Positions 1-7,224 of a DNA stretch of 24,352 bases are shown in pieces. Within the stretch, counting starts at the first letter, position 1, and every line of letters starts with the position of its first letter. Source of the stretch: Candidatus Wukongarchaeum yapensis (GTDB taxonomy: Archaea; Asgardarchaeota; Wukongarchaeia; Wukongarchaeales; Wukongarchaeaceae); NCBI GenBank assembly GCA_016840425.1, contig JAEOSI010000005.1, positions 1 through 24,352 on the forward strand. Reading direction: 5' to 3'. A program made the position numbers and the translations under genes. The notes under the pieces are model-generated. The model ran no database searches, was not told the DNA's origin, and was given only the letters and a program-made list of their open reading frames with translations.

Positions 1-1713
1 TGGCATAACTTTGAATTCAGCCCTTGTCTCTTTATCAAGCTCTTTTACTTTAACTTCCCTGTATGCTGGAGATATGTTGCAGGCGCCACATACTGGAATA
101 ATTCTCACGTTCCCTTCGCGTGGGATCTTATAAACGGTTTCAAACTCCTCGACTGTCGTCCCTAAAGGCGCTTCTACTTTTACCTCTTTTTTATGTAGAG
201 AGACGATTAAGTCGAACTCTTTTTCTAAGCACATTCTTTCCCAAAAGATGAGGGATGCTTTTCTTTCCAAAGCGTGGGTTAAATAACCCTCCTCAGTAAG
301 AGGAACCCTTTCGTCTTCAAGACCTTTGTCAGCTCTTGTCAGTTTGTCAAGGAACTCTTCAGCGGGAGCAGCAGCCCCTGTTTCAGGAGGAAGTGTCTCT
401 TTTTTCCTGGCTTTTTTCTCGGCCGGCTTGGGAACTTCAGGCTTGAGTTCTGTTCGAAGACGCTCTATTTCTTTTTCTTCTTTTACGAACATGTCTTCTT
501 CTTCCTCTATTCCTGCGTCTAGCCCCTCTAGTGTTTCGCCTAGCCCTTTACCGACGACCTCTGTTATTTTGAGGACTCCTTTCAGGTTTAACGCTTCTTC
601 GCCCACATAGTATTCCCTAGTGTAATGTTCTACATCGGTCATTATGGATTCGTATTTCGGATAACCTATTATTGTAGGGAACGCGCTTCTGGGTTGGTCT
701 TCGCCTGCATAACCTGCTTTTGTTAGTTCGGCTCCCATATCTATGACGATAGGTTTTCCAAGCTTTTCACCTAATTCTTCTTCGGAGGCTTCACCTATAA
801 CAAACATTCCTAGTTTTTCGCGAATTATGTCGGGTCCATGTTCTTCGTACTCTTTTTTAGTTATCCAAAGCCTGTTAGAACTTTTCCTTGAAGCTATTAT
901 GCTTGCCGCTATCCATTCAGCGTAACTCGGTGCTTCTGGCGTAATTATGTTGATTTTAGTGGTTTCTGGCAGGATAGCGCTAAGTTCTTTTTGTAGGCGT
1001 TCTTTTAAGCCTGAAAGCGAGGCTGTTCCGCCGCATAACACGATGTTCTCATAAAGTTTGTTACGTATTGATGCGTCGCAGCTTTTTACAGCGTCAACTA
1101 TTAGCTCACTAAGATTCTTTCCTTCAATACCAAGGACTGTGGGATTGAAAAGGCATTCTGGAGCCGTAAATCTTTCAGTGCGTATAGTTATCTTTTCGCC
1201 ATCAGGTAACGTGTAAGAGATCTCTATCTTTGCCTTTTCACTCTTCAATTCTTTTTCGTAGTCCAGTGCAGCGTAACAAAGTTTCTCCTTGATGTCGCGA
1301 ACAATCTCACGCTCAGTGCTGGTGTCAAGCGAATAACCGCTCTGCCGAAGCAACCTTCTCAAATAATCCGTGATATCGCTTCCTCCCACATCAAAAGTCC
1401 TTATAGCGTGGGTGATGGGGAAACCTTCCTCGACTGGCACAATCTCAGTAGACGTATAACCGATGCTCACAACGACTCCCGTTGTTTTACCAACACTAAT
1501 CAGAGGAAGAACGCCTTTGTCAAGGAGCATGACAGCTTGAGCGTTAAAGGTGTCAAAACAGATCTCAACTAGCTTTTCCCGATTAGCGGTAGGATTTAGG
1601 GTAGGATCTGTAAAAACAAGAGGATGTTCTGAAGGTTCAACCCGAAGATCGGTATATAGGATATAGTGTAGGATCTTTTCGAAGCCATCCCAATCAAGAA
1701 TCATTTCACTCAA
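1..1713 (-). CDS. Circularly permuted actin-family protein (Asgard actin-derived) fused to a C-terminal extra domain; 3'-partial, runs off the window edge
   Basis: Manual translation gives an open frame from TTG 1713 (GGGGG SD-like run at 1721-1725; upstream in-frame TAA at 1747-1749) to base 1 with no stop. It reads MSEMILDWDGFEKILHYILYTDLRVEPSEHP...GKTTG...EREIVRDIKEKLCYAALD...YTLPDG...ERFTAPECLFNP...LYENIVLCGGT...LWITKKEYEEHGPDIIR (actin ~72-375), then KPIVIDMGAELTKAGYAGEDQPRSAFPTIIGYPKYESIMTDVEHYTREYYVGEEALNLKGVLKI (actin ~5-70), then a linker and a further domain. Confidence 0.93.
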   Translation of the reverse strand, partial: MSEMILDWDGFEKILHYILYTDLRVEPSEHPLVFTDPTLNPTANREKLVEICFDTFNAQAVMLLDKGVLPLISVGKTTGVVVSIGYTSTEIVPVEEGFPITHAIRTFDVGGSDITDYLRRLLRQSGYSLDTSTEREIVRDIKEKLCYAALDYEKELKSEKAKIEISYTLPDGEKITIRTERFTAPECLFNPTVLGIEGKNLSELIVDAVKSCDASIRNKLYENIVLCGGTASLSGLKERLQKELSAILPETTKINIITPEAPSYAEWIAASIIASRKSSNRLWITKKEYEEHGPDIIREKLGMFVIGEASEEELGEKLGKPIVIDMGAELTKAGYAGEDQPRSAFPTIIGYPKYESIMTDVEHYTREYYVGEEALNLKGVLKITEVVGKGLGETLEGLDAGIEEEEDMFVKEEKEIERLRTELKPEVPKPAEKKARKKETLPPETGAAAPAEEFLDKLTRADKGLEDERVPLTEEGYLTHALERKASLIFWERMCLEKEFDLIVSLHKKEVKVEAPLGTTVEEFETVYKIPREGNVRIIPVCGACNISPAYREVKVKELDKETRAEFKVMP

Positions 1714-2305: not shown

Positions 2306-3802
2306 TTACGCGGTTTTTGCATGATTTTTTATTTGTTTTTCGAGGGTTTCCCAGAACATGCGCATTGAAAAGTTTGTGAAATCTTTGAACATTTCTTTTT
2401 CTTTTGTGAGTGGGGAGTAGTAAGCTGCATCATGGAGATGGCGTAGAAGCGTGTATAGGTTCACGATTTTTTGGAAGTGTTTTTTCCATGGGAGATTTTC
2501 TGTTTTTAGGAGGTTTTGGTAGGTTTTGATTATTTTTTCGTTTATTTTTTCGAGGAATTTTGTGGGGCAGTTTGGGATGATGTTTTCTGTGAGTTCTAAA
2601 TGTTTTGCTATGAATTTGTTTGCGGTTATGAGGTCTGCTATATCTTTTGCTGGGTGGCCTATGTAAAACTCTTCTAGGTCTAGTATGACGAGTCTTTCTT
2701 TTTTTGTTAGGAGTATTTGGCGCCATTGGGCGTCGTTATGTATGATAGTGAAGGGTTTTATTGGGGTTTTTTCTAATAAGGTTTTGAGAGTTTTTCCTAT
2801 TTTTTCTGCTTCTTGGGTGTTTATGAGCTGGTTTTGTAAGAGGTTTTTAATGTTTTTGTCCATGTCTTTTTTAATTAGAGGCATGAGATCGTAAAGGGGA
2901 GATATTTGGAGGTTTTTTGTTATTCGATTTTTGTGTTCGTAGCCTATTTTGTGGAACTGAAAAATTACGCTTTTTACAACTTTTTCGATCAGAGTTTCTA
3001 AGTTGGATTGTTGTGGTTGTGGTTTTTCTTTTAAACATTTTTTTTGGGTGGTTTTCCAGATTATTTCTCCTAGCTCTTTGGATTCTTTTATGTTTTCCAT
3101 GAATATGGCGAGTATTTGTTCCCGACTTTCGGGTTTTCTCTGAGTTTTTATACCTCCAAATAGTTTGGGTGTGAAGCCTGTTTTTTTAAATGTTTTTAGG
3201 GCTTCGAGTTCATTGTTTCCTCGGTAAAAACGTTCTCGTGGTAGGTAGCGTTTGATTAGTAGGGCTTTATTTTCAAAGAGTGTTATTTTAGCTAAATAAA
3301 GCCTGTTAGTGGTGGGTTCGCCTTTTGGGAATAGGGGGGAAACTGAGAGGACTTTAAGTTTATCCAGAACTTTAGCCATTTCTTCGGTTAAAAACACGGA
3401 GAATTTCCTGTTTTTTTCCTTTTTTTCGACGTTTTTTAAAAGGAGGGATACGCCTTCGGTGGAAGAGAAACGGTCGATTACGAGGAGCTTTTCATGGTTA
3501 TTAAGCTTTAATTCGCCTAAGATACGTTCTTCTTTTGATGTTTCTTTTTTAATTATTATGGATTCATAAAATTCGAAGAATTCGTTATCAAAAGTTTCTA
3601 CGTATAACATGAAGTCAAAACAGTTTTTAGAAGCGTTTATAAGTTCTATTTTACAACTTGAAATTTTTTCAAGCTTAACACGCCACCTTCTGGGGTCGTA
3701 AAAAAGTTCTGCCCACCGATTAGAAACTTTGTTATAAATGGTTAGAGTGTCAAAGTGTACGTGGAAAGACAAAAGGGTTACCTGCCCAAAATAGAATTTC
3801 AT
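2306..3802 (-). CDS. Maltokinase/aminoglycoside-phosphotransferase (APH/ChoK)-like kinase
   Basis: 498 aa. EPTTN resembles the maltokinase EQSN motif; LLIKRY supplies the Lys strand; catalytic-loop-like IIHNDAQWRQIL (cf. HGDLHLGQVL); Mg-binding VILDLEE (cf. IIDFEG); then PAKDIADL. Substrate is uncertain. Confidence 0.6.
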   Translation of the reverse strand: MKFYFGQVTLLSFHVHFDTLTIYNKVSNRWAELFYDPRRWRVKLEKISSCKIELINASKNCFDFMLYVETFDNEFFEFYESIIIKKETSKEERILGELKLNNHEKLLVIDRFSSTEGVSLLLKNVEKKEKNRKFSVFLTEEMAKVLDKLKVLSVSPLFPKGEPTTNRLYLAKITLFENKALLIKRYLPRERFYRGNNELEALKTFKKTGFTPKLFGGIKTQRKPESREQILAIFMENIKESKELGEIIWKTTQKKCLKEKPQPQQSNLETLIEKVVKSVIFQFHKIGYEHKNRITKNLQISPLYDLMPLIKKDMDKNIKNLLQNQLINTQEAEKIGKTLKTLLEKTPIKPFTIIHNDAQWRQILLTKKERLVILDLEEFYIGHPAKDIADLITANKFIAKHLELTENIIPNCPTKFLEKINEKIIKTYQNLLKTENLPWKKHFQKIVNLYTLLRHLHDAAYYSPLTKEKEMFKDFTNFSMRMFWETLEKQIKNHAKTA

Positions 3803-3830: not shown

Positions 3831-5105
3831 TTAACAGTGAACTACCCCCCGCTTTTGCAGGGGGGCTTCCTGCGAGTACATCCTTATCGGGATGCCTGTT
3901 TTTCGCAGAATATCCTCGAAGGAGGATAGCCCGTCCACTGGGGCGTTTTGTGATAGAAAACGAACCATGATGTTTACGGCTGAGTTTTTGTCTCTGTCCA
4001 GTTCGTTTCCACAATAATCACATCTCATAGCCCTATCCCATATATTCATTTCGTGTTTTTTACCGCACGCACAACATGTTTTTGTTGTGTTTTCTTCGCT
4101 GATTTCTATTACTCTCTTACCTACAAGTTTAGCCTTGTAGGTTAGAAATCTGGCGAAGCGGGATAGGCATCCGTTGTTTTGAACTGCTCTATGCAAACTT
4201 TTATCTCGTTTTTTATCCTTATTTCTATTAGAGTTAGACATCTTTTTCACGTTTAGGTCTCCTATGATTATAGTGTTTGCCTTTGTGTTCTCAACAAGCT
4301 TCTTACTCAACTTGTGCTGAAAGTCTTTTATTTGGTTTGCGCATTTTCTCTGCATTTTCCTGAGTTTTCTATGGTACCGTTTCCACTTCCTGCTCCCTTT
4401 CTTGCAATGGTCTCTTTTAGGCTGAATCTCTTCGATTTTCGACTGCCAATACTTGTCCGGTCTCGGATTCTTGGTTTGTAAAAATTTTCCTTTAGTATTT
4501 ACTGCGGTTATGATGTTGGTAATCCCTAAGTCTATTGCTTGGTAAAGTCCGTTATCCAAGTAGGGTTTCTCTTTTCTCTCATAAACGATCGAGATATAGA
4601 ACTTATCACCATCTTCTTTGAAAATTGTAACCTGTTTCACCTTTTTATCCGTGAAGTCGAACTTTTCAGGGATGGTGAACCTTAAAGGGGTGGTTTTTGG
4701 ATGGTTGTGGGAGAACTCAACCCACCCCTCCTTATCGAGCTTGAACCCCGACTGGTTGTAATTCATTGTTGTAAAGTGGTTTTTCCCTTTGAATCTTGGA
4801 GGGTTCGCTTTTTTGTCCCCGTTCCTCCTCAAAGCGAGGAAGGACTTATAGTCGCCGTCCAGCCTCCTTAGAACCATCTGCAAAACTTTTGAATAGACCC
4901 AGCTGTATTCAGGATACTTCCTTTTTATCTCTGGTAGGTCGTTCTGCTGTTTAGTGTAGTTAACATTTTTCCCGTTTTTCTTCCATGCTTCTATTCTTCC
5001 CGCTAGGGCGAAGTTGTATATGAGCCGACATTTTTCGGAAAGATCCTGAAGTACTTCTTCTTGTTCCTCTGACGGGAATATCCTGGTCTTCTGGGTTAGT
5101 TGCAT
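3831..5105 (-). CDS. tnpB: RNA-guided endonuclease TnpB
   Basis: Likely start is ATG 5105 (MQLTQKTRIFPSEEQ, HTH_OrfB-like). Motifs: RuvC-I AIDLGI, FQHKLSKKLV, RuvC-II region IIIGDL, Zn finger CCACG...CDYCG, RuvC-III DRDKNSAVNI. The stop codon lies just outside the element's right end. Confidence 0.95.
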   Translation of the reverse strand: MQLTQKTRIFPSEEQEEVLQDLSEKCRLIYNFALAGRIEAWKKNGKNVNYTKQQNDLPEIKRKYPEYSWVYSKVLQMVLRRLDGDYKSFLALRRNGDKKANPPRFKGKNHFTTMNYNQSGFKLDKEGWVEFSHNHPKTTPLRFTIPEKFDFTDKKVKQVTIFKEDGDKFYISIVYERKEKPYLDNGLYQAIDLGITNIITAVNTKGKFLQTKNPRPDKYWQSKIEEIQPKRDHCKKGSRKWKRYHRKLRKMQRKCANQIKDFQHKLSKKLVENTKANTIIIGDLNVKKMSNSNRNKDKKRDKSLHRAVQNNGCLSRFARFLTYKAKLVGKRVIEISEENTTKTCCACGKKHEMNIWDRAMRCDYCGNELDRDKNSAVNIMVRFLSQNAPVDGLSSFEDILRKTGIPIRMYSQEAPLQKRGVVHC

Positions 5106-5187
5106 CTTATATTTCTTTCCCTTGGAAACCTTATAAACACCGCGATTCATCCCCTCCCTGTTGGAAGGAGACTTCTCGCCAAATAAG
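3837..5187 (-). mobile_element. IS200/IS605-family solo-tnpB element (IS1341-type, no tnpA)
   Basis: On the minus strand the left end CTTATTTGGCGAGAAGTCTCCTTCCAACAGGGAGGGGATGAATCGCG (hairpin) follows a TTTAA target motif (+ strand TTAAA, 5188-5192). The right end is GGAAGCCCCCCTGCAAAAGCGGGGGGTAGTTCAC (hairpin plus TCAC, ending at 3837). No tnpA lies between the ends. Confidence 0.8.
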
Positions 5188-5263: not shown

Positions 5264-6199
5264 TTGATTAAAGCATCAGGGTTTGAAAAAAGGGTGAAGG
5301 AAACTAAAACGATTGTTTATGCTGCCCTTATAGGAAATGCTTCGATAGCTGTTATGAAGGGTATTGCTGCCTCTATCACCGGCAGTAGCGCTATGTTAGC
5401 GGAAACTTATCACAGCATAAGCGATACAATGAATCAAATTTTTCTACTGATTGGCTTGAGGATGGCTTCTAAAAAGCCTGATGAGCAGCATCCCTTCGGT
5501 TATGGTAAATCTCAATTTTTCTGGAGTTTTGTCGTAGCTATTCTCCTTTTTGGTGTGGCTGGAGTGCTTTCGGTTATTGAAGGAATTTATAAGATTCAGA
5601 ATCCTGAACCTCTTGAAGATGTTTTTGTTAGTTATGCTGTTTTGGCTTTTGCTTTCGTTTTTGCCGGCGCAACGCTAATGATAGCTGTCAGGGAGATAAG
5701 GCGTCGGACTATTGAGGGGGGTTATAGGAATATGATTGAAGCCATGAGGGAGATAAAAGACCCTACTGCAGCAACCGTAGTCGTAGAAGATTCAATAGAA
5801 GTTTGTAGCTTAACCTTGGCAGCTGTAGCTATATATGTAACTCAGAAAACTGGTAACGCTAAATGGGACGGGTTGGCATCGTTGATGATAGGTATAATTT
5901 TGATGATTATGGCTATTTTTTTAGCGAAGGAGAATATGGATTTGCTTATAGGCGAAGCTGTAAGACTTAGGGATAAAAAGGTTGTTGTTAGGGCGATCCT
6001 TGGACTTGAGGAAGTTGAAAAAGTTTTAGATTTTAGAACCATGTATTTATCGCCGAAAGAGGTTCTTGTAACGTGTGATGTGAATTTTAAAGATGGTTTA
6101 ACGACATGCGACTTAGAAGTAGCTATCGACAAAATAGAGAGAATAATTAAGCAGAAACTTCCAATCGCTAAAAGGATCTATATTGAGGCGGAAGAGTAA
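5264..6199 (+). CDS. Cation diffusion facilitator (CDF) family transporter, copy 1
   Basis: SSAMLAETYHSISD (HxxxD), KKPDEQHPFGYGK, VEDS, WDGLASLMIG and a C-terminal dimerisation domain ending RIYIEAE. The true start may be the in-frame GTG at 5294, by comparison with copy 2. Confidence 0.93.
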   Translation: MIKASGFEKRVKETKTIVYAALIGNASIAVMKGIAASITGSSAMLAETYHSISDTMNQIFLLIGLRMASKKPDEQHPFGYGKSQFFWSFVVAILLFGVAGVLSVIEGIYKIQNPEPLEDVFVSYAVLAFAFVFAGATLMIAVREIRRRTIEGGYRNMIEAMREIKDPTAATVVVEDSIEVCSLTLAAVAIYVTQKTGNAKWDGLASLMIGIILMIMAIFLAKENMDLLIGEAVRLRDKKVVVRAILGLEEVEKVLDFRTMYLSPKEVLVTCDVNFKDGLTTCDLEVAIDKIERIIKQKLPIAKRIYIEAEE

Positions 6200-6318: not shown

Positions 6319-7224
6319 TTGATGAGGACTAAAACTCTCGTTTATGTTGCGCTGATAGGAAACATTTCGATAGCTATAATGAAGGGTATTGCCGCCTCTA
6401 TCACCGGCAGTAGCGCTATGTTAGCGGAAACTTATCACAGCATAAGCGATACAATGAATCAGATTTTATTACTGATTGGCTTGAGGATGGCTTCTAAAAA
6501 GCCTGATGAGCAACATCCTTACGGTTATGGTAAAGCTCAGTTTTTCTGGAGTTTTGTTGTGGCTGCTCTCCTTTTTGGTATGGCTGGAGGGCTTTCTATA
6601 ATTGAGGGATATGATAAGATTCAGAATCCTGAACCCCTCGAACATGTTTTTGTTAATTATGTTGTTTTAGGGTTTGCTTTTCTTTTTGATGGCACATCGC
6701 TTACAATAGGGGTTAGAGAGATGAGACTACGGACCCGCGAGGGCGGTTATAATAATATGATTGAAGCCATGAGGGAGATAAAAGACCCTACTGCGGCAAC
6801 CGTAGTCGTAGAAGATTCGGTAGCAGTTTGTAGCTTAACCTTGGCAACTGTAGCCATATATATAACTCAGAAAACTGGTAACGCTAAATGGGACGGATTA
6901 GCATCCTTGATGATAGGTATAATTTTGATAATCATGGCAGTTATTTTGGCTAAGGAGAATATGGATTTGCTTATAGGCGAAGCTGTAACAACAAAAAAGA
7001 AAAGGAAGATTGTTAGGGCGATCCTTGGACTTGAAGAAGTTGAAAAAATTTTAGATTTTAGAACCATGTATTTATCGCCGAAAGAGGTTCTTGTAACGTG
7101 TGATGTGAATTTTAAGGATGGCTTAATAACGGATGAGTTAGAAGATGTTATCGACAAAATAGAGAGAATAATTAAGCAAGAACTTCCAATAGCTAAAAGG
7201 ATCTACATTGAAGTAGAAGGGTAG
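6319..7224 (+). CDS. Cation diffusion facilitator (CDF) family transporter, copy 2 (tandem paralog)
   Basis: Same motifs as copy 1 (HSISD, HPYGYGK, VEDS, WDGLAS), with long identical DNA stretches shared between the copies. Confidence 0.93.
   Translation: MMRTKTLVYVALIGNISIAIMKGIAASITGSSAMLAETYHSISDTMNQILLLIGLRMASKKPDEQHPYGYGKAQFFWSFVVAALLFGMAGGLSIIEGYDKIQNPEPLEHVFVNYVVLGFAFLFDGTSLTIGVREMRLRTREGGYNNMIEAMREIKDPTAATVVVEDSVAVCSLTLATVAIYITQKTGNAKWDGLASLMIGIILIIMAVILAKENMDLLIGEAVTTKKKRKIVRAILGLEEVEKILDFRTMYLSPKEVLVTCDVNFKDGLITDELEDVIDKIERIIKQELPIAKRIYIEVEG

Follow-up and report, generated by a model that had tools for sequence, protein, structure and literature searches.

The window analysed here, 24,352 nt of a contig from Candidatus Wukongarchaeum yapensis, begins inside a gene encoded on the minus strand whose product is an actin with a rearranged chain (Table 1). 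The reading frame is open from a TTG at 1713 or an ATG at 1704 through the first base of the window, the ATG being the start found in orthologues. The gene then leaves the start of the contig and resumes on another contig of the same assembly (C22:145-516), where it reaches its stop, for a total of 691 aa. In the numbering of this protein (P0001), residue n corresponds to window positions 1713-3(n-1) down to 1711-3(n-1). The join is backed by a contiguous 700-aa open frame followed by the same downstream gene in the sister genome (G002:C7), and also by public contigs that cross the window start. With a dN/dS of 0.23 the whole gene is under purifying selection, and a pseudogene was ruled out by this value together with the open frame. 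A single 152-nt contig from a leaf-litter metatranscriptome, which matches positions 1088-1239 with 3 differences, was rejected as RNA evidence: it makes up a small share of a single run and may stem from DNA carried over. Around the gene lie housekeeping functions (CDF transporters, an M42 peptidase, DUF166 and isochorismatase genes), and no defence gene was found in this neighbourhood. The order of two CDF genes, an APH-like gene, the permuted actin and DUF166 is kept in the sister genome and in two metagenome contigs, with the APH-like kinase gene as the conserved upstream neighbour. This synteny is uninformative on function, because it is seen among close relatives only.

Table 1. Coordinates of the permuted-actin gene and its parts in the window (SD, subdomain)
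Feature	Position	Strand	Basis or remark
Permuted-actin CDS	1..1704	minus	first 568 codons, from ATG 1704-1702
Actin residues ~75-375 (rest of SD1, SD3, SD4)	814..1704	minus	Pfam Actin profile 69-408; Foldseek TM 0.65-0.73 to actins
Lys at actin position 137 (Q137K), K66	1516..1518	minus	alignments
Degenerate phosphate-2 loop, V-V-S-I-G-Y-T-S-T-E for V-V-D-S-G-D-G-V-T-H	1444..1473	minus
Junction linker, native actin C-terminus to native N-terminal tail	754..813	minus
Actin residues ~8-68 (first SD1 beta-hairpin and whole SD2)	559..753	minus	Pfam profile 5-69 at 541-756
Degenerate phosphate-1 loop, D-M-G-A-E for D-N-G-S/T-G, D325-E329	727..741	minus
D-loop, lokiactin-like	613..660	minus	nearly invariant among 6 orthologues
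Acidic, Pro-rich, low-complexity linker	280..558	minus
Ig-like beta-sandwich (~125 aa), first ~93 residues	1..279	minus	start of conserved C-terminal module

The actin fold of the 691-aa protein is circularly permuted and comprises four subdomains. The chain runs through actin residues ~75-375 first and ~8-68 afterwards. The Pfam Actin profile (PF00022) is matched well above its cut-off (357 bits; cut-off, 27; E = 1e-106) and in two parts, of which the first covers profile positions 69-408 and the second, further along the chain, positions 5-69. The ASKHA motifs (phosphate 1, connect 1, phosphate 2, adenosine, connect 2) are therefore not collinear, phosphate 1 and SD2 (profile 5-69) being encoded behind profile 69-408. 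The permutation has opened the chain in the sensor loop (near residues 69-75), and the old N-terminal tail now links the former termini. Within this junction linker a Met (805-807) is invariant in the clade, and an acidic stretch containing a G-K-P motif can be aligned with the N-terminal tails of lokiactins; the 20 codons of the linker give a dN/dS of ~1.3. The linker looks like the footprint of a tandem duplication followed by truncation. The main actin part has a dN/dS of 0.21, and the transposed SD2 piece, 62-74% identical to lokiactins, one of 0.11. Misassembly was ruled out as the source of the permutation: the same order is repeated in a paralogue and in the contiguous 700-aa frame of the sister genome, and the junction is bridged by contigs of three independent public runs. 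The first-pass annotation had already described the protein as a permuted actin, and the Pfam order, the sister-genome frame and these contigs all agree with it. AF2 modelled the actin part with a pTM of 0.71, and the top 50 Foldseek matches of this model were all actin-containing entries (TM 0.62-0.76 over ~298 residues). The best solved match to the permuted actin is PDB 9wc4, ‘HC1 actin’. The SD2 piece had a pLDDT of ~30 in the model; since its alignment rows were unpaired fragments, no conclusion on SD2 disorder is drawn. A feature search of the ESM Atlas with the permuted actin returned ordinary actins only (score 0.81).

The permuted family consists of 11 proteins, namely 6 orthologues of the window protein and a second, paralogous clade of 5. 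Both clades are represented in this genome and in the sister genome, which belong to one genus. The paralogue of this genome has the same layout, is located on contig C20 where it adjoins nadA and nadC, and has orthologues elsewhere; both paralogues are conserved in metagenomes from marine sediment, seawater, sediment and mangrove. The permuted arrangement was not found in any other of the 400 Asgard genomes searched. The closest named public records carry the label Candidatus Hodarchaeota, and orthologues in public records are listed only as ‘hypothetical protein’. In the phylogenetic tree the 11 permuted proteins fall on one side of a branch with an SH-aLRT of 100, and all 36 lokiactins on the opposite side, separated from them by long branches. 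Identity to lokiactins after de-permuting is 57-58%, compared with ~80% among lokiactins. The tree and these identities place the permuted actins outside the lokiactin clade; in our reading they derive from lokiactin. The genome also encodes a canonical lokiactin (contig C185; a complete lokiactin gene is on contig C44 of the sister genome), a profilin (C175) and gelsolin-domain proteins (C23), and a partner filament system is therefore present.

We placed the residues of the nucleotide site by HMMER alignments to yeast actin and ‘HC1 actin’, and by MAFFT alignments to 15 lokiactins, a comparison that the first-pass annotation had proposed. All the replacements that it had listed were recovered at the same coordinates: Q137K, D154S (S83, 1465-1467), D157Y, G158T and H161E (E90, 1444-1446), hence SIGYTSTE for DSGDGVTH in phosphate 2, as well as DMGAE for DNGSG in phosphate 1 and WIAAS for WIGGS. 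The first Gly-to-Ala change of WIAAS is private to the window copy, since orthologues have WIGAS or WIGAN. The other changes extend through the family. Lys137 is preceded by Asp (M136D), and this D-K pair is invariant in 11/11 permuted proteins; H161 is replaced by E or K, and D154 by S or N. At position 14 lokiactins have Thr and eukaryotic actin has Ser; the permuted proteins have Ala there, except for one pair of orthologues and one further orthologue with the lokiactin-like Thr. The Gly15 position holds E or K in the window clade and, in the paralogue clade, D, N or S. Across the family the two loop glycines vary widely (position 15, five residues, D/E/K/N/S; position 158, four, D/M/N/T). 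Thus S14, G15, Q137, D154, D157, G158 and H161 are all replaced, in the window protein and family-wide, the orthologues with Thr at position 14 excepted. Altogether, 12/27 nucleotide-site positions are kept. D11, G13 and K18 are retained in the phosphate-1 region, as are R210, K213, E214 and G301-G302-T303 in the window clade; the paralogue clade has Glu at G302.

These retained residues, the G-G of the adenosine motif among them, could be read together with the new Lys137 as a site for non-canonical nucleotide binding and perhaps hydrolysis, in which case the protein would polymerise under regulation while tethered to the membrane, or serve as a filament seed. We regard this as very unlikely: both phosphate-loop glycines are replaced by bulky or charged side chains that vary between orthologues, D154, D157, Q137 and H161 have all gone, the paralogue clade has lost G302, and the cut falls in the very sensor loop that reads the gamma-phosphate. 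We infer from these residues that the permuted actin hydrolyses no ATP and, probably, binds none canonically. The earlier description of the protein as ATPase-dead is thus supported at the level of sequence as far as catalytic and loop residues are concerned, these being replaced in all 11 members. Its suggestion that actin mimicry was achieved by permutation is corrected in one respect: the permutation is not the cause of the ATP-site degeneracy. Its effect is that the chain now leaves the fold in the sensor-loop region, from which the tether sets out.

The tether consists of the acidic linker, an Ig-like domain and a pair of hydrophobic helices. The linker varies in length among orthologues (90-150 aa), comprising in one of them (P0013) 94 aa with 27 D+E, 12 K+R and 14 P; its dN/dS is 0.58, and strain variants occur within it in public runs, including a 3-base indel at 493. 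The beta domain has a dN/dS of 0.10. The rest of the beta-sandwich and two predicted transmembrane helices are encoded on contig C22, past the window edge. AF2 modelled the C-terminal module with a pLDDT of 77, as 12 strands and 2 long helices (residues 143-164 and 172-207 of the module). Kyte-Doolittle windows of at least 1.6 are found at ~620-640 and 648-682 of P0013, and two hydrophobic helices of transmembrane length are conserved in 18 aligned homologues. The permuted actin is thus predicted to be a membrane-anchored protein, by way of a two-helix hairpin. No stand-alone anchor module was found in this genome.

Relatives of the anchor module are fused to TIR (TIR_2), LRR, TPR, STAS, SPFH and Ras/Roc domains, a range that suits signalling or conflict proteins no less than cytoskeletal ones, and ESM Atlas proteins of similar structure have, among others, TIR, EAD11 and TCAD9 architectures. 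Such company, with an APH-like kinase gene conserved upstream, would suit a membrane signalling or conflict protein whose pseudo-actin head is a sensor or decoy (for instance for actin-targeting factors) and whose Ig-like domain and transmembrane hairpin serve as output or scaffold. However, the Atlas matches reflect a generic Ig-like fold (TM ~0.5), the neighbourhood is of the housekeeping type and devoid of defence genes, and the synteny, limited to close relatives, carries no information. Two stable paralogues across four metagenome habitats are also unlike a fast-turnover defence gene. We consider a signalling or conflict role to be quite unlikely.

The surfaces of the actin part have diverged to very different extents. 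The first-pass annotation had noted that EIVRDIKEKLCY and the D-loop were conserved relative to Asgard actin. Indeed, EIVRDIKEKLCY is identical between the permuted actin and the lokiactin of the same genome, and the D-loop matches the lokiactin consensus at 12/13 positions; SD2 does so at 29/37 (78%), and purifying selection on both is strong. Identity to this consensus is 68-70% in SD4, 54% in SD1 and 48% in SD3, while only 12/29 positions of the barbed cleft, 7/16 of the SD3 face and 1/7 of the C-terminus are kept. The pointed half is 71% and the barbed half 52% identical to the lokiactin consensus (Fisher p = 5e-4). SD2 is no closer to the lokiactin of the same genome (73% identity) than to the consensus (78%), and a recent gene conversion was therefore ruled out as the reason for its conservation. 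The argument from the D-loop holds for the window clade and fails for the paralogue clade, where the D-loop keeps 2/13 consensus positions and SD2 51%. Since SD2 has been able to drift in the paralogue clade, the demands of the fold by themselves do not explain its conservation in the window clade. On the barbed face, several changes are common to both clades and invariant (A144S, R147K, A170P, F352S and an S-N-R-L-W-I-T helix); this face has therefore been remodelled and conserved, and not simply decayed. It may be the main working surface, with some other partner, which weighs against the docking on lokiactin proposed below. In conserving one longitudinal face while its opposite has diverged, the protein shows a trait of a filament-end, Arp-like pseudo-actin, Arp-like here designating a functional class and not a clade.

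Two further explanations start from the same surfaces. Actin-fold proteins are known at pointed ends (Arp2/3, dynactin Arp11), and the permuted actin could, by the analogy to Arps that the first-pass annotation drew, be a pointed-end nucleator or cap offering its barbed face as a template, from which lokiactin would grow away from the membrane. Such a role needs a conserved barbed face; here cleft, SD3 face and C-terminus are the least lokiactin-like regions and the pointed face is the best-kept part, which makes it highly improbable. Alternatively, the paralogues might self- or co-assemble, by surfaces that have co-adapted (the changed D-loop of one clade and the remodelled cleft of both), into a short membrane filament or a heterodimer without lokiactin, as an own membrane-bound polymer comparable to those of FtsA or MreB. 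The co-occurrence of both paralogues in the two genomes of the genus, the invariance of the barbed-face changes in both clades, and a paralogue D-loop that is changed and yet conserved inside its own clade are all in line with this. On the other hand, a lokiactin-type D-loop facing an altered cleft makes like-on-like docking look mismatched, lateral-contact positions are kept at 16/26 in the window clade and 4/26 in the paralogue clade, and polymerisation would lack its usual control now that the nucleotide switch is lost. We judge an independent polymer unlikely.

The interpretation in which we place about even confidence is that the protein of the window is a non-hydrolysing, membrane-tethered pseudo-actin that docks on the barbed ends or faces of lokiactin as a cap or anchor, not as a nucleator. 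The pointed face of the window clade (D-loop, SD2 and SD4) would dock into the cleft of the lokiactin barbed face, either at the barbed end of a filament or on a lokiactin monomer. Growth would stop there: with the barbed face of the permuted actin remodelled, and its old C-terminus bound up in the linker, a further subunit could not add. The chain exits the fold right after SD2 and runs through the acidic linker and the Ig-like domain to the predicted membrane hairpin, and lokiactin filament ends would be held by this cap or anchor at the cytoplasmic face of the membrane. Among the roles put forward by the first-pass annotation (capper, nucleator or adaptor), a barbed-end cap or anchor is therefore favoured, and an Arp2/3-like nucleator disfavoured, by a barbed face that is remodelled and a pointed face that is kept. 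A more elaborate and rather doubtful version would make it the first actin-fold barbed-end cap, built into the membrane: paralogue 1 would sit with its D-loop on the lokiactin barbed end, paralogue 2 would bind paralogue 1 via a co-adapted D-loop and the remodelled cleft, and in both the tether would start from the cut sensor loop, at the SD2 base, so that membrane and filament end would be coupled in a force-sensitive manner. Since the tether starts at this cut loop, a pull from the membrane would act directly on the docking subdomain. In other Asgard archaea this anchor is joined to Ras-like GTPases that are permuted as well, and permuting an NTPase fold so that a tether exits beside the element that senses the nucleotide may therefore be a design of Asgard archaea in general.

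If the cap or anchor reading is correct, an integral membrane protein has been made from actin while keeping the surface that fits the growing end of the filament. It would be the first natural circular permutation reported within the true actin family, and would exemplify an Arp-like ‘dead actin’ arising independently in archaea. Our literature search found no published description of a permuted or membrane-anchored actin; for Asgard actin it found known profilins and gelsolins, and no described membrane linker, nucleator or end-binding protein. The permuted actin is a concrete, testable candidate for the link between actin and membrane in the building or moving of Asgard protrusions.

Its closest counterpart is lokiactin, with which it shares, besides the fold and the identity given above, a near-identical D-loop and SD2. 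It differs from lokiactin by its rearranged chain, the replaced ATP-site residues, the remodelled barbed face and ~300 additional residues (acidic linker, Ig-like domain and two transmembrane helices). In Arp2/3, and in the Arp11 that occupies the pointed end of dynactin's Arp1 filament, one filament face is kept and the other lost. The permuted actin resembles these Arps in being an actin-fold protein with one filament face kept, hence one expected to sit at an end. However, it is the barbed face that these Arps have kept, and they are found at pointed ends, whereas the permuted actin keeps the pointed face; they are neither permuted nor integral to the membrane, and ATP binding persists in Arp2 and Arp3. 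FtsA has rearranged subdomains and an amphipathic membrane-targeting helix, binds ATP and tethers FtsZ. It is likewise a membrane-attached protein of the actin superfamily with a non-standard subdomain topology that tethers another polymer, as proposed for the permuted actin. It nevertheless belongs to a different family (the Pfam FtsA match to the permuted actin, E = 0.013, is below the cut-off), and the permuted actin has predicted transmembrane helices in place of the amphipathic helix and actin as candidate partner in place of FtsZ. The circularly permuted GTPases YlqF and RsgA, with the motif order G4-G5-G1-G2-G3, provide a precedent for permuted NTPase folds. The Ras/Roc-like domains fused to relatives of the anchor module also read as permuted, in the order G3-G4-G5-G1-G2, which is not that of YlqF; these GTPases are unrelated to actin.

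The permuted actin gene is real and extends beyond the window. Its frame (residue n occupies window positions 1713-3(n-1) down to 1711-3(n-1)) reaches the first base of contig C97, and window 1-144 is the exact reverse complement of positions 1-144 of C22, another contig of the same genome, where C22:145-516 carries the frame on to a stop codon, for a total of 691 aa. The ATG at 1704 is the start in all orthologues. In the sister genome of the same genus (G002) the gene is a contiguous 700-aa open frame, with upstream genes that match the window and a downstream gene that matches C22; the NCBI entry for this copy reads 'hypothetical protein ACFE68_01385 [Candidatus Hodarchaeota archaeon]'. The permutation junction is bridged by contigs from three public runs belonging to three studies (684-1800 or 314-995), and long public contigs overrun the window start. 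Orthologues of 690-716 aa were found in other metagenomes, with 74-85% identity over the queried region (residues 296-571). In three public runs the linker-coding stretch at window 220-590 is covered by pairs of short alternative contigs, which show 8-13 differences as well as a 3-base indel at 493; strain-level linker variation probably explains the assembly breaks at 220-590 and at the C97/C22 boundary. A 152-nt leaf-litter metatranscriptome contig matches window 1088-1239 with 3 differences; this sole RNA-library match represents a very small share and may be DNA carry-over.

Coordinates of the permuted actin genes and of the genes upstream of the window copy
Feature	Coordinates	Strand	Description
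Permuted actin open frame	1713 (TTG) or 1704 (ATG) to window base 1	minus	single frame
498-aa Lys-rich protein (APH-like)	2306-3802	minus	weak APH/kinase-like match, E = 3e-4, below cut-off
TnpB/OrfB_IS605 gene	3831-5150	minus	HTH, OrfB and Cas12f-like TNB domains; between CDF pair and APH-like gene
Tandem cation-efflux (CDF) transporter genes (two)	5264-6199, 6319-7224	plus	about 80% protein identity to each other
C20 paralogue, 753 aa	L008:172-2433 (locus on contig C20)	minus	permuted actin, acidic linker, beta domain and two TM helices

The APH-like gene lies next to the permuted actin, upstream and on the same strand, and this arrangement is conserved in G002 and two metagenome contigs. 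About 590 bases separate the two genes, and some annotations place a small opposite-strand gene in between. The CDF pair is likewise conserved, in G002 and one metagenome contig. The corresponding syntenic regions of G002 and one metagenome contig lack the TnpB gene, which is therefore a recent insertion in this genome.

A permuted actin fold had been proposed in the first-pass annotation, and is borne out by profile searches. The Pfam Actin match (E = 1e-106) is split into two parts that have changed places: residues 4-300 correspond to profile 69-408, and window 756-541 to profile 5-69. The swap recurs in HMMER alignments to solved actins, the best solved match being 9wc4 'HC1 actin'. In vertebrate actin numbering, used hereafter, the chain runs from actin 75-375 through a linker of about 20 residues to actin 8-68. 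The protein has the profile and fold of the actin family, and lacks its collinear motif order and catalytic residues. Subdomain 2 (SD2) is poorly modelled in the predicted structure.

The genome carries a second such gene on contig C20, whose product has the layout of the window protein and its own orthologues at 79-97% identity. Once de-permuted, the window protein and its orthologues (clade A) are 57-58% identical to lokiactins, the canonical Asgard actins, the C20 paralogue and its orthologues (clade B) 40-42%, and the two clades 46% to each other. In a maximum-likelihood tree, a fully supported branch splits the 11 permuted proteins from all 36 lokiactins, placing the permuted actin outside lokiactin; this split points to a single permutation event followed by duplication. 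When the junction region was searched against 400 genomes of the phylum, collinear junction-spanning matches occurred only in the genome studied here and G002, both paralogues being present in each; the remaining matches listed covered the N-terminal piece only or the C-terminal piece only, like canonical actins. Known carriers are all closely related and come from metagenomes of marine sediment, seawater, sediment and mangrove.

Several features bear on how the permutation arose. The junction linker aligns with lokiactin N-terminal tails, with an acidic stretch and then G-K-P ahead of the first strand, and a Met directly after the old actin C-terminus is invariant in the clade. In our reading of the alignment, clade B has the Y/F-P-I/V segment (positions 69-71) copied at both ends of the actin part, as V-F-P-V-R at the new N-terminus of the C20 paralogue and E-Y-P-I-S ending its SD2 piece; clade B also retains the old C-terminal Phe ahead of the linker. 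From the doubled segment, the tail-like linker and the Met, which are the footprints expected of such a history, we infer a tandem duplication after which the outer part was lost on either side.

The first-pass annotation had considered the head ATPase-dead, and the substitutions on which it relied are all present: Q137K (K66, 1516-1518), D154S (S83, 1465-1467), D157Y (Y86), G158T (T87) and H161E (E90, 1444-1446), together with D-M-G-A-E for the phosphate-1 motif D-N-G-S/T-G (741-727) and W-I-A-A-S for W-I-G-G-S. M136D and Q137K are invariant in 11/11 permuted proteins, in which S or N replaces D154, Y or E replaces D157, and E replaces H161 except in one orthologue, which has K. Phosphate-loop glycines must lack a side chain so that backbone amides can hold the phosphates; here both are replaced and free to vary (D/E/K/N/S at position 15, D/M/N/T at 158). 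The permutation cut falls within residues 70-78, the sensor loop by which actin detects the gamma-phosphate. Loss of ATP hydrolysis is thus strongly suggested by these residues, and canonical ATP binding has probably been lost as well. Among 27 positions which we take, from known actin structures, to contact ATP or Mg, 12 are unchanged in clade A and 9 in clade B; D11, G13, K18, R210, K213 and E214 are kept, as is G301-G302-T303 in clade A, clade B having Glu at G302. A rival reading is that, with such residues, a non-canonical ATPase activity is retained.

The consensus of each clade was then compared with the lokiactin consensus over alignment columns in actin numbering. With contact lists that are approximate and drawn from established knowledge of F-actin structures, clade A is identical at 12/13 positions of the D-loop, which is intact as first proposed, at 12/18 other pointed-face contacts, 16/26 lateral contacts, 12/29 positions of the barbed-face cleft, 7/16 of the SD3 barbed-face patch and 1/7 of the C-terminus. 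The conserved segment EIVRDIKEKLCY, also singled out earlier, is identical in the genome's own lokiactin. By subdomain, identity is 78% in SD2, 68-70% in SD4, 54% in SD1 and 48% in SD3 (pointed versus barbed half, odds ratio 2.3, Fisher p = 5e-4). SD2 has drifted in clade B (51%, D-loop 2/13), so folding in the permuted frame does not depend on its conservation; that clade A keeps it suggests a preserved interaction. More than decay has shaped the barbed face, because several of its changes (A144S, R147K, A170P, F352S and an S-N-R-L-W-I-T helix) are invariant across both clades. In the pairwise comparison with G002 the whole gene has a dN/dS of 0.23; by segment, the beta domain (0.10), the SD2 piece (0.11), the TM part (0.17) and the main actin part (0.21) lie below this figure and the acidic linker (0.58) above it.

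Each subunit of F-actin inserts its D-loop into the SD1/SD3 cleft of its neighbour on the pointed-end side. With its lokiactin-type pointed face, the permuted actin could therefore join a lokiactin filament at the barbed end or dock on a monomer's barbed face. No further subunit should add, because its own cleft is altered and the old C-terminus is tied into the linker, and the protein's TM hairpin would keep the bound end close to the membrane. The genome contains a partner system of canonical lokiactin, profilin and gelsolin-domain genes. A barbed-end cap or anchor is our best reading, although the whole chain of inference has only about an even chance of being right. It retains part of the earlier suggestion of a capper, nucleator or adaptor; an Arp2/3-type nucleator is unlikely, as this would need the opposite conservation pattern. 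A self-assembling or A-B polymer is a rival for which the invariant barbed-face changes and, on the other side, the altered cleft have to be weighed. The proposed cap or anchor would act like end-binding Arps, but at the opposite filament end, and, as an actin-fold tether attached to the membrane, would resemble FtsA; the protein is a member of neither family. A literature search found no paper mentioning a permuted or membrane-integral actin.

The linker that follows SD2 is acidic, Pro-containing and of low complexity (94 residues in clade A, 156 in clade B), and leads to a conserved C-terminal module, about 200 aa long and encoded at window 1-279 and on C22. An AF2 model of this module (pLDDT 77) shows a beta-sandwich of about 12 strands and two long helices, and hydropathy supports two TM segments. 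Foldseek returned weak Ig-like matches only (CARDB, PapD/MSP, ASH, PmoB-type sandwich-plus-helices). Hydropathy detected no hydrophobic segment in the head, ahead of the C-terminal hairpin, which would place the head, linker and sandwich in the cytoplasm, with the hairpin as their anchor. Few proteins carry the module, which was found in 28 clusters out of 1.84 billion representatives. Thorarchaeota have it by itself, in proteins of about 320 aa, and elsewhere it is fused to Ras/Roc, TIR, LRR, TPR, STAS or SPFH domains. Such company would suit a rival reading, in which the protein acts in signalling or conflict and its head is a decoy.

The Ras/Roc-like GTPase domains fused to the anchor in three relatives of the module (P0041, P0145 and P0148) also look circularly permuted, with Pfam Ras profile 47-161 first and Roc profile 1-41, containing the P-loop, after it. 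The motif order in P0041 is G3 (WDPAG), G4 (NKLD), G5 (SAK), G1 (GVDAVGKT) and G2, unlike that of the permuted GTPases YlqF/RsgA. Two unrelated NTPase folds thus look permuted, the tether apparently exiting in each just past the strand that follows the nucleotide-sensing element.
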